Assembly: GCA_963699155.1 (NCBI GenBank)
Contig: OY969414.1
Coordinates: 1,099,757 to 1,163,756, forward strand
Origin: an uncultured Chlamydiales bacterium
GTDB lineage: Bacteria; Chlamydiota; Chlamydiia; Chlamydiales; JAAKFR01
DNA length: 64,000 bases
Reading direction: 5' to 3'
The notes beneath the pieces are model-generated. The model ran no database searches. It was not told the origin of the DNA and saw only the letters and a program-made list of their open reading frames with translations. Shown here piece by piece: positions 59,006 to 60,699 of this stretch. The translations under genes were made by a program, and so were the position numbers. The first letter of the stretch is position 1; each line of letters opens with the position of its first letter.

Positions 59006-59713
59006 CTAGTGCCCGACCGCAAAAATCTTGCTCCTCTGGTGTGTTTGATTCAAAATGCCTCTTTCCAAGGGGAGACTGTCGATCTGCGGGAGCTTTTCTG
59101 CCAAGAGATCGAGAGCATTCTCCACCTGCCTCAGGTCAAAGCTATCTACAAAAAAGAGAACTCGTTTTGTCTTGAGATCGATACAACTTTCTGCTGAGTC
59201 CTTATGGTTCCAGAGCCAACAGAGGATGCGCGCTTCATCAGCATAAACCAGGTGGTGTGGTGAGGTCTCGATAGGCTTTCCCTCGCCTAAAGGTAAGAAT
59301 TTTTCTCCCTCTTCAGCATAGCGGATCATCAGGTTCCCCGAGAGTTTGTCAATATCATAACCTCCCATCGGCAACAGCGTCAAAACAGAACAGCAATTGT
59401 AAAGATCGACGACAGGATGGATCTTCCAAATCTCTTTTCCCGTGACAACACGCCTGACAAGCGCTTCAATTGAGGAGCGGTAGCTTTTAGGATTCACTCC
59501 AAAGTCCTCCTGATAGATTTTACGCCAGATTGCTATCAAGGGTTGAGCGACGAAATTGGTCGCATTGATTCCCTGATTAGTGAGATGGTCTGGCAGCTGC
59601 TTTTTAAACTCTTCCAAATAGCCATCGCTGCATAGTTCAACTTGCGCCGTCAGAAAACCGATCTGTGCCTCCGGATAGTGTTCAAAGACCTTTTTTTCTA
59701 TGGTGATCTCCAT
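59006..59713 (-). CDS. Stand-alone B3/4 (PheRS beta-like) editing-domain protein
   Basis: YRSSIEALVRR, VVDLYN..S, GGYDIDK, WLWNHKDS; AAGGAGG SD before MEIT. Confidence 0.85.
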   Translation of the reverse strand: MEITIEKKVFEHYPEAQIGFLTAQVELCSDGYLEEFKKQLPDHLTNQGINATNFVAQPLIAIWRKIYQEDFGVNPKSYRSSIEALVRRVVTGKEIWKIHPVVDLYNCCSVLTLLPMGGYDIDKLSGNLMIRYAEEGEKFLPLGEGKPIETSPHHLVYADEARILCWLWNHKDSAESCIDLKTKRVLFFVDSFDLRQVENALDLLAEKLPQIDSLPLERGILNQTHQRSKIFAVGH

Positions 59714-59805
59714 TTGACCTCCTTTTAAATTACAGCTCAATTTTAAACGTTGCCTGAAAATTAGAAAAATTAATAAAATTCATTTCCTATAAGTATTGTT
59801 AATAT

Positions 59806-60699
59806 ATGATCGATTATCGTGGCTTAGAGGCCCTTCACACCATCCTAGAGCAGCAATCCTTCGAAGGCGCAGCGATAGTTTTACATATCAGCCAGTCTGC
59901 TGTCTCACAAAGGCTCAAACAGCTAGAAACGGCCTACGGGGAACCTCTGCTGATTCGCACCCTTCCTTATCGATTAACTCCTATCGGGGAACTCCTTTTA
60001 GCACACTACAGCCAAGTCTCACTCCTCGAAGAGAGCTTGAGCCACGCTTTGGGCTCTTCTCCCGCTTCGCAAAGGATTGCTATCGCGATCAATCGCGACA
60101 GTCTAGAGACCTGGTTTTTGGAACTGATTGACGAAACCTCACTTTTTAGTGGAGTGTTTCTCGAAGTGTTCAGTGACGATCAAGAGCTCACTTTAGAATA
60201 CCTTAAAAAAGGAGAGGTTTCTGCCTGCCTCTCGACTGCCTCTAAGGAGATTTTAGGTGGAAGGGTCGATGCACTTGGTACGATGGATTATCTCCTCGCT
60301 GCCTCGCCCGCGTTCATTAAAAAATATGGCTTTAAAAAAGCTCCTGAGCTGGCTCTCAGGAGAGCGCCGGCTCTCAAGTTTGATCAACAGGACCGATTGC
60401 ATGAACGCTATCTAGAGAGGTTCTATGGCATAGATGGCAGAGAGCTCTCTTTTCATCTCCTCCCTTCAGTGAGAGGTTTTAAGAAGTTTGTGATGGCAGG
60501 TTATGGATATGCTCTTCTTCCTCTTATCGATATCAGAGAGGAATTGGCAAGTGGACAGCTTATAGCGATCGACAGTGAACGGATCTGGAAGATCCCCCTC
60601 TATTGGCACTCCTATGCGATCCAATCCTCAGTTTATGAGAAATTCAATAGGGAGATGATCGCTCAAATTAAAAAGAGAATCAAATTTCCTTCGCCCTAA
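59806..60699 (+). CDS. argP: LysR regulator, ArgP/LysG subfamily
   Basis: SQSAVSQRLKQLE, AINRDSLETWF, DDQELT, LYWH. Confidence 0.85.
   Translation: MIDYRGLEALHTILEQQSFEGAAIVLHISQSAVSQRLKQLETAYGEPLLIRTLPYRLTPIGELLLAHYSQVSLLEESLSHALGSSPASQRIAIAINRDSLETWFLELIDETSLFSGVFLEVFSDDQELTLEYLKKGEVSACLSTASKEILGGRVDALGTMDYLLAASPAFIKKYGFKKAPELALRRAPALKFDQQDRLHERYLERFYGIDGRELSFHLLPSVRGFKKFVMAGYGYALLPLIDIREELASGQLIAIDSERIWKIPLYWHSYAIQSSVYEKFNREMIAQIKKRIKFPSP

Follow-up and report, generated by a model that had tools for sequence, protein, structure and literature searches.

The subject of this study is a pair of divergent genes in a 64,000-nt stretch of contig OY969414.1 from an uncultured Chlamydiales bacterium (hereafter the window), whose genome (Chlamydiota) is a single contig of 2.4 Mb. 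On the plus strand, positions 59806..60699 encode a 297-aa LysR-type regulator of the ArgP/LysG family. On the minus strand, positions 59006..59713 encode a 235-aa B3/4 protein, a predicted aminoacyl-tRNA deacylase, from an ATG start to a TAG stop. The two genes are separated by a divergent control region of 92 bp (59714..59805) with a GC content of 22.8%, compared with 44.7% for the window. An earlier note, made from the letters alone, had described this divergent pair and its AT-rich spacer, and its coordinates hold. Our analysis indicated that the locus is a conserved regulatory module, in which an editing-type protein from a distinct subfamily of the CtdA superfamily very probably stands under ArgP/LysG control and would ancestrally have been co-transcribed with a LysE exporter that has been lost here.

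The regulator passed the NCBIfam models NF002964 (302.9 bits, cut-off 197) and TIGR03298 (290.4 bits, cut-off 273.55), bearing out its earlier assignment to the ArgP/LysG family; with the narrower ArgP model NF009888 it scored 269.4 bits, under the cut-off of 297. It consists of an HTH_1 domain and a LysR substrate domain, and its PDB sequence matches were LysG (6xtv, E 1e-37) and Rv1985c (3isp, E 4e-35). This was the single HTH_1 match in the genome and the sole LysR-type helix-turn-helix (HTH) found. For the B3/4 gene product, B3_4 was the sole strong Pfam match (93.3 bits, cut-off 29.3), and apart from PheT it is the genome's only B3/4 domain. A 244-aa version starting from TTG at 59740 was rejected; homologues begin at the ATG (MEITIEKK), which has GGAGG 4 nt upstream. 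No LysE gene adjoins the locus, as had been claimed, and the genome's only LysE-family gene, RhtB/RhtC-like, lies about 212 kb away.

Conservation of the gene pair

We scanned one genome per species, which returned 23 loci, and found neighbours by tblastn with the window proteins. The results showed that an ArgP 44-60% identical to that of the window lies divergently upstream of a B3/4 protein (50-61% identical) in 18/18 chlamydial loci (L002-L019), and the same divergent pairing was found in one alphaproteobacterial metagenome-assembled genome (MAG; L022). ArgP was not adjacent in three more distant loci (L020, L021 and L023), and L024 was cut at the gene. Among 400 sampled Chlamydiota genomes, 16, including the window genome, carried a B3/4 ortholog at an identity of at least 49%, and an ArgP identified by its TIGR03298 match adjoined it on the opposite strand, by coordinates, in 16/16. 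The 18-locus and 16-ortholog sets overlap, as both draw on species-representative genomes. A metagenome scan provided an independent set of 28 loci at an identity of at least 44%: ArgP was adjacent in 21, absent in 5 and not assessable in 2, which gives 21 of 26 assessable loci, and three of the five loci without ArgP were near-identical contigs with an N-terminally truncated B3/4 gene. The neighbourhood survey that the earlier note had proposed as a check therefore revealed a strongly conserved pairing.

Control region, exporter and effector pocket

Two LysR-type dyads had been reported in the spacer, and both sit at the positions given for them: dyad 1, ATTAGAAAAATTAAT, at 59760-59774, and dyad 2, ATAAGTATTGTTAAT, at 59789..59803 on the plus strand. 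Such dyads by themselves are unremarkable in AT-rich DNA. The alignment comprised the window spacer, its 19 orthologs and 4 spacers of other ArgP loci (3 LysE-paired, 1 facing another open reading frame, ORF); the 20 orthologous spacers measure about 85-134 bp, some of their start codons being uncertain. The results showed that dyad 1 is the reverse complement of a box, ATTAATTTTACTTATA (also written ATTAATTTT(A/T)CT(T/A)AT), which is conserved at 80% or more over the 20 spacers, the flanking proteins being only 50-60% identical. In the window this predicted ArgP box occupies 59760..59775 on the minus strand (TATTAATTTTTCTAAT; family consensus TATTAATTTTACTTATA). With ArgP at the left, the conserved cassette reads CATTAG-N5-CTTATG-A-ATCATAA-N5-ATTAATTTTACTTATA-N12/13-TTAAAAT, followed by a Shine-Dalgarno sequence. 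Of dyad 2, only ACTTAT (59789-59794, minus strand) fits the conserved upstream half-site CTTATG-A-ATCATAA.

From the spacer we predicted an activator-dependent promoter for the B3/4 gene at 59740..59768 on the minus strand, with a -35 element TTTTCT (59768..59763), a 17-nt gap and a -10 element TAAAAT (59745..59740), followed by the ribosome-binding site GGAGG (59722..59718, minus strand). Both the -10 sequence TTAAAAT and its distance of 12-13 nt from the box are conserved in the alignment. The weak -35 was missed by the consensus promoter scan, and the promoter is a putative one. The same scan predicted an argP promoter at 59750..59779 on the plus strand (TTGCCT, 18 nt, TAAAAT; 9/12 matches). 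The box overlaps the -35 of the B3/4 promoter and sits between the -35 and -10 of the argP promoter; its overlap with the argP promoter would give autoregulation. The locus thus has a predicted divergent target with a conserved LysR-type box near its -35, as is typical of the ArgP/LysG family. The 16-nt motif TATTAATTTTNCTNAT had one exact site genome-wide, in this spacer, and a genome-wide regulon search with the box motif gave no convincing second site (3 one-mismatch sites versus 2 in the control). With one exact copy of the box in the genome, ArgP looks like a dedicated local regulator.

The exporter that is absent from the window locus was found in its relatives. A lysE gene lies directly downstream of the B3/4 gene, on the same strand, in 6/18 genome loci and follows it in 12 of the 16 ArgP-positive metagenome loci with enough downstream sequence. 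These exporters are mostly 55-70% identical to the LysE of LysE-only loci (45-48% in L068 and L069), and their best NCBIfam matches were the L-lysine exporter model TIGR00948 (175-178 bits) and the ArgO model, both below cut-off. A search of the phylum gave four strong ArgP matches away from any B3/4 gene. Opposite ArgP lies a full LysE-type exporter gene in G255 and G177 and a 121-aa LysE fragment in G373; in G322, a congener, a diverged ArgP paralog (L042:4021-8901; 45% identical) faces an ORF of at least 1299 aa without a Pfam match. The LysE-paired spacers (L040, L041 and L043) carry the same box and -10. One cassette thus appears to drive B3/4-lysE, lysE alone or, in the window genome, B3/4 alone. 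The pairing of this cassette with each of these outputs in relatives indicates that the exporter was lost, not replaced, in the window genome. The simplest history suggested by these data starts from an argP / B3/4-lysE module that lost either of its two output genes, the window genome having kept B3/4. The earlier description of a B3/4 protein "instead of" an exporter therefore fits the window genome and fails for many relatives, in which LysE follows B3/4.

Two loci or groups of loci showed signs of module decay. In a complete Parachlamydiaceae MAG (G234; L017:5001-5699), the B3/4 gene has an in-frame TGA and lysE is intact, and three near-identical contigs (L063-L065) carry an N-terminally truncated B3/4 gene and LysE fragments.

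We then considered whether the adjacency of the two genes could be positional only, with ArgP regulating itself or distant genes and the B3/4 gene being constitutive. The degenerate upstream half-site in the window genome would fit such a view, but the divergent pair is kept in 18/18 and 16/16 cases at a protein identity of 50-60%, the spacing between the box and a conserved -10 that faces B3/4 is maintained, the same cassette drives lysE in other genomes, and the genome holds only one exact box. We regard a merely positional relationship as highly improbable. Control of the B3/4 gene by ArgP is, on this comparative sequence evidence, very likely.

Downstream of the B3/4 gene, 34 nt past its stop, an aldo-keto reductase (AKR) gene follows on the same strand (57982..58971, minus; Pfam Aldo_ket_red, 265 bits), and the earlier note had named it as possibly co-transcribed. 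It could be a functional third member that detoxifies a product. The gap is just 34 nt and no terminator-like site was seen in it, so that some read-through from the B3/4 gene into the AKR gene is conceivable. However, the AKR gene and the upstream 201-aa ORF were present in 0/23 related genome loci, and the downstream genes elsewhere are lysE or unrelated. The link is not conserved, the proposal found no support in the survey, and we consider a functional role of the AKR in the module quite improbable.

PMC7519686 gives the arginine contacts in the LysG crystal structure as N95, D97, D124, E125, H161, F189, D193 and F222. Mapped by pairwise alignment, these positions read N, D, D, Q, Y, F, D and F in the window ArgP, 6/8 being identical (E125->Q, H161->Y). 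Of the 21 other ArgPs in the alignment, 19 share the contact set of the window ArgP, among them the six from B3/4-lysE loci and the three from LysE-only loci. The set differs in L022 (S at the first position) and in L042 (G322), where the effector residues are changed to E, E and I; Y was found at the F189 position in L015, L019 and L022. The predicted effector pocket thus supports a shared sensor across ArgP loci.

The B3/4 protein and its candidate substrates

The PDB sequence matches of the B3/4 protein were the two CtdA structures (9mkl, E 4e-15; 9f7e, E 4e-14). An AlphaFold model built on 50 homologues had a pLDDT (predicted local distance difference test) of 94.2, and its top PDB folds in Foldseek were again CtdA, with template-modelling (TM) scores of 0.81/0.83 for 9f7e and 0.80/0.83 for 9mkl; identity in the structural alignment was about 22-23%. 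The protein resembles CtdA (PDB 9f7e, 9mkl; PMC10018355, PMC12449066) in being a stand-alone protein of about 230 aa with the B3/4 fold and the CtdA-specific helical insert, and its earlier description as a stand-alone B3/4 protein was correct. The editing domain of the beta subunit of phenylalanyl-tRNA synthetase (PheRS) shares the fold family (Pfam B3_4), with a TM score of only about 0.57 to the window protein, which differs from it in being free-standing, in having another insert and in not sharing the pocket residues of PheRS. At the aligned positions, the PheT of this genome carries H, F, G and E.

The pocket of CtdA is formed by N105, G116, E118, C166, Q173 and I189, of which N105, G116, C166 and Q173 have been found to matter by mutation (PMC12449066). 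As the reference we took close relatives of the solved CtdAs that are encoded on plasmids of R. leguminosarum and Pantoea (E 1e-86 and 2e-108 to 9f7e). The results showed that the window protein and the other 18 chlamydial ArgP-linked proteins have the pocket N G Y C D F, whereas CtdA has N G E C Q I. N105, G116 and C166 are kept, and the changes E118Y, Q173D and I189F are invariant in the 20 ArgP-linked rows, save for C at position 189 in the alphaproteobacterial L022. The motifs PMGGYD, CWLWNHKD and FFxD are invariant in the ArgP-linked proteins.

A profile search of 1.84 billion representatives gave 330 clusters at E <=1e-30 and 2128 at E <=1e-10. A 36-row tree contained a 99/96 split between the ArgP-linked proteins and a group of the CtdA references, a C. 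acetobutylicum homologue and LysRS-fused (lysyl-tRNA synthetase) chlamydial domains. In a 75-row tree of representatives, a split with an SH-aLRT (Shimodaira-Hasegawa-like approximate likelihood ratio test) of 96 separated two sides, with the CtdA references opposite the window clade. Rooting the 36-row tree on the genome's PheT domain gave an outgroup branch length of 10, and only unrooted splits were used. By sequence, the B3/4 protein is thus assigned to a separate subfamily ("GGYD / CWLWNHKD / FFxD") of the CtdA superfamily. The phylogeny places it outside the CtdA clade and three of six pocket residues are changed and invariant, so the equivalence with CtdA that had been suggested was not upheld.

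These data bear on the possibility that the protein is nevertheless a true CtdA, deacylating canavanyl-tRNA-Arg, with ArgP responding to canavanine or arginine, as in its control of E. coli argO. The two CtdA structures are its best solved relatives, N105, G116 and C166 are conserved, and an exporter-plus-deacylase logic suits a toxic arginine analogue; canavanine resistance in E. coli is governed by ArgP mutations and arginine efflux (PMC12546413). Against this stand the invariant changes E118Y, Q173D and I189F in the clade, the position outside the CtdA references in both trees (99/96; SH-aLRT 96) and a subfamily without an ArgRS (arginyl-tRNA synthetase) fusion. CtdA is accompanied by a guanidine riboswitch or a canavanine operon, whereas the window protein lies beside ArgP: there were 0 Rfam matches on 58800-60000, hence no guanidine riboswitch, and the neighbours are ArgP and the AKR, with no canavanine-catabolic genes. 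The CtdA homologues on the R. leguminosarum and Pantoea plasmids face an HTH protein of about 200 aa, not ArgP. The hosts, judging from MAG names, would be protist-associated rather than legume-associated. A true CtdA is therefore unlikely in our judgement, although it is the foremost of the rival explanations.

We surveyed fusions by a Pfam scan of 37 long proteins among the top 150 representatives. The B3/4 domain was fused to class II LysRS in P0143, P0197 and P0243 (partially in P0139 and P0245), to class I LysRS in P0153, P0181 and P0228, to ArgRS in 7 proteins, to ankyrin repeats in 13 and to an ATP-grasp domain in 1. On the window side of the 75-row tree, we found the LysRS fusions P0139 and P0143 (class II) and P0153 (class I), and no ArgRS fusion. 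The motifs of the window protein are kept in P0139 (42% identity to it) and P0143 (39%), and the locus L071 encodes a 761-aa B3/4-LysRS ORF with PMGGYD, SWLWNHKD and FFID. All four synthetase fusions found in the window subfamily (P0139, P0143, P0153 and L071) are thus LysRS and none is ArgRS, another difference from CtdA, indicating that tRNA-Lys is no less probable as the target than tRNA-Arg. In P0162, inside the subfamily, and in P0232 and P0265, on the other side of the tree, the B3/4 domain is joined to a tRNA-binding or anticodon-binding domain.

A domain closer to CtdA, with the pocket N G D C E V, was found in a frame of 559-818 aa in 34/400 Chlamydiota genomes. All four such frames examined were LysRS fusions, three N-terminal and one C-terminal (L028:2210-4549, L029:2139-4439, L031:2046-4364 and L030:4066-6339), and the fused LysRS is the genome's only LysRS in both genomes checked (G045 and G247). 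No genome of the 400 had both the ortholog and the LysRS-fused domain; chance alone would give an overlap of only about 1.4 for 16 and 34 carriers, and this complementary distribution was not used as evidence. According to PMC5370406, E. coli LysRS mischarges tRNA-Lys with arginine and other amino acids and does not deacylate the products.

The fusions also bear on whether the B3/4 protein is a tRNA deacylase at all. It might instead assist export or sensing by binding or processing the free basic amino acid or some other aminoacyl ester. Consistent with this, two pocket positions are changed, Q173, which is needed in CtdA by mutation, and E118, which lines the predicted pocket, and 13 of the 37 scanned representatives carry C-terminal ankyrin repeats, which are unusual for an editing factor. 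The subfamily has, however, been fused repeatedly and independently to LysRS of class I and class II, the wider family has been fused to tRNA-binding or anticodon-binding domains, and the catalytic-water Asn is retained together with the Gly and Cys of CtdA. We consider this non-editing role improbable, somewhat more so than a true CtdA, and a deacylase function, as far as these sequence features tell, likely. The ankyrin repeats, found within P0123-P0171, are in any case an odd partner for a tRNA-editing protein. Ankyrin repeats are common in intracellular bacteria.

Outside the Chlamydiota, members with the same pocket adjoin a membrane di-iron enzyme (Pfam FA_desaturase) and, in several loci, LysE (L021:4029-6456, L023:4051-5711 and L034:2535-5273). 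The FA_desaturase-type context was also found in 6/20 lower-identity metagenome loci (L070, L072, L079-L081 and L085). The best NCBIfam match of the di-iron enzyme was GntB (227, 210 and 106 bits, under the cut-off of 380), the L-arginine gamma-hydroxylase of guanitoxin biosynthesis, and the L021 cluster also has an ornithine-cyclodeaminase-family gene. In a variant in a chlamydial paralog context (L035:1176-3503), a PF10014 2-oxoglutarate-Fe dioxygenase stands with LysE and B3/4; we take PF10014 enzymes to hydroxylate free amino acids. A further chlamydial paralog context (L032:3063-5685) combines a pyridoxal-phosphate enzyme, an ornithine-cyclodeaminase-family gene and B3/4.

The GntB-like/B3/4/LysE clusters are arranged as would be expected if a producer of a modified basic amino acid shielded its own translation from it, and they are a candidate pathway for such a compound. 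Self-protection of producers by other deacylase families has been demonstrated in PMC13149037, where 3-hydroxyarginine is also reported to be mistranslated at arginine sites. The subfamily resembles the FthB and BesG systems of that paper in that its non-chlamydial members adjoin GntB-like or PF10014 genes and LysE; it differs in that FthB and BesG belong to other protein families (INS and AlaX), and in that the window module is regulator-controlled and lacks a biosynthetic gene. No GntB-like gene was found in the window genome, the best match being 33 bits, so the compound would come from outside.

Proposed mechanism and neighbouring features

In the mechanism that we infer for DNA binding, induction, deacylation and the identity of tRNA and amino acid, a LysG-like ArgP would bind the predicted conserved box over the weak -35 and switch on the B3/4 gene when an effector accumulates, the effector being an Arg/Lys-type amino acid or an analogue. 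The B3/4 protein would be a free-standing post-transfer editing enzyme of the CtdA superfamily, with the pocket N-G-Y-C-D-F. It would act by hydrolysis on tRNA that carries the wrong, near-cognate basic amino acid, most likely on tRNA-Lys after mischarging by LysRS, which itself lacks post-transfer editing. The moiety could be arginine, or a hydroxylated or otherwise modified lysine or arginine analogue. In most relatives the same promoter would also drive a LysE/ArgO-type exporter expelling the compound, and the window genome would keep proofreading only.

Since both the pairing and the operator and promoter are conserved, an ArgP-controlled proofreading module is the best reading of the locus. 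A three-gene argP / B3/4-lysE module widespread in environmental Chlamydiota, with the window locus as a remnant, is the best explanation of the gene order. For the whole, a remnant encoding an inducible deacylase for mischarged, probably tRNA-Lys, tRNA, our confidence lies a little above even. The parts differ in strength: a basic amino-acid moiety as the substrate is reasonably probable, and tRNA-Lys is only slightly preferred over tRNA-Arg as the target. The idea of an inducible proofreading module against basic analogues, put forward by the earlier note, is thus sustained by the conserved pairing, operator and promoter, and not in its equation with CtdA or its inclusion of the AKR.

Several observations weigh against this explanation. 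To act on Arg-tRNA-Lys, a free-standing enzyme would have to discriminate between tRNAs. CtdA Q173G is inactive (Glu is tolerated in C. perfringens), and here the residue is Asp and E118 is Tyr, so that catalysis is assumed. The partner half of the upstream operator half-site is degenerate in the window genome. GntB acts on arginine, not lysine, which favours an Arg-type moiety, and the opposite side of the tree mixes seven LysRS with all seven ArgRS fusions, so that the fusion partner is not a clean predictor. Finally, the module is patchy: the B3/4 gene was found in 1/22 other genomes of the family and in 0/2 congeners. A DNA synteny search against the two congeners gave only a short dispersed repeat, these genomes being too diverged to tell module gain from loss.

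A more specific extension is possible but doubtful. The GGYD/CWLWNHKD subfamily may be a dedicated post-transfer proofreader for LysRS, which is held to lack one, in cis when fused to class I or class II LysRS and in trans when free. The amino acid cleared would be a hydroxylated or otherwise modified basic one; producers would make it with GntB-like or PF10014 hydroxylases, and intracellular bacteria would meet it from the eukaryotic host. ArgP would sense this compound and co-induce eraser and pump. If true, the module would be the first case in which a transcription factor controls a combined editing and efflux defence against a look-alike of lysine or arginine.

The known systems closest in regulation are ArgP-ArgO (E. 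coli), LysG-LysE (C. glutamicum) and Rv1985c-Rv1986 (M. tuberculosis), in which an ArgP/LysG LysR-type regulator is likewise divergent from its target. In the chlamydial relatives, the target operon also holds a LysE/ArgO-type exporter, with the B3/4 gene preceding lysE. The window locus differs from ArgP-ArgO and LysG-LysE in that its predicted target is a tRNA-editing-type protein and no exporter adjoins the regulator. In the literature searched, we found no case of a deacylase as an ArgP/LysG target and no description of the ArgP-B3/4 pairing or of LysRS-B3/4 fusions; Table S2 of PMC12449066, which lay outside the search, may list chlamydial homologues. The main texts of PMC12449066 and PMC12268091 do not contain LysR, LysRS, lysyl, fusion, fused or Chlamyd, ArgP is absent from PMC12449066, and PMC10018355 mentions neither LysR nor a regulator. 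Free-standing tRNA-editing enzymes are few and their substrates mostly obscure, and control of one by a metabolite-sensing transcription factor, in one operon with a pump, was not found in print. The module is a compact system of one regulator, one 92-bp operator region and one enzyme. It raises the questions of which basic amino-acid look-alikes threaten translation in intracellular bacteria, whether LysRS, which mischarges tRNA-Lys without correcting it, has an external proofreader, and whether a cell can give up export in favour of proofreading. For structure-function work, the pocket residues that differ invariantly from those of CtdA provide a natural switch of specificity.

Other features of the genome and the window were observed. 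The RhtB/RhtC-family LysE-type exporter about 212 kb away (L001:788-2769) lies on one strand with a YheO-like PAS/HTH regulator and an AlaX-like protein (AlaXM, 82 bits), forming a second exporter and editing module; YheO-like regulators also adjoin a YbaK-type tRNA_edit gene (L040:6245-7363) and an aminotransferase and B3/4 pair (L033). Within the window, a repeat of about 30-45 nt occurs in both orientations at 57198-57281, with 52 matches in G322 and 11 in G050, and has the look of a repetitive extragenic palindromic (REP) or miniature inverted-repeat transposable (MITE) element. At 55100-56170, ORFs overlapping on both strands share repeated peptides, such as KEPLEAEVEA.GDSLHPEVGLFCMERRGRIDIEIDL twice, pointing to duplication of a non-coding or repeat element that lies upstream of the gene for the BBP7 porin (55962-57059). 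On the minus strand beyond argP, a 66-aa highly charged ORF (60734-60934) and a 172-aa repeat protein rich in Arg, Ser, Thr, Ala and Lys (61097-61615) had no Pfam match, and positions 61885-62829 encode a eukaryote-type mitochondrial-carrier protein (Mito_carr, 46 bits).

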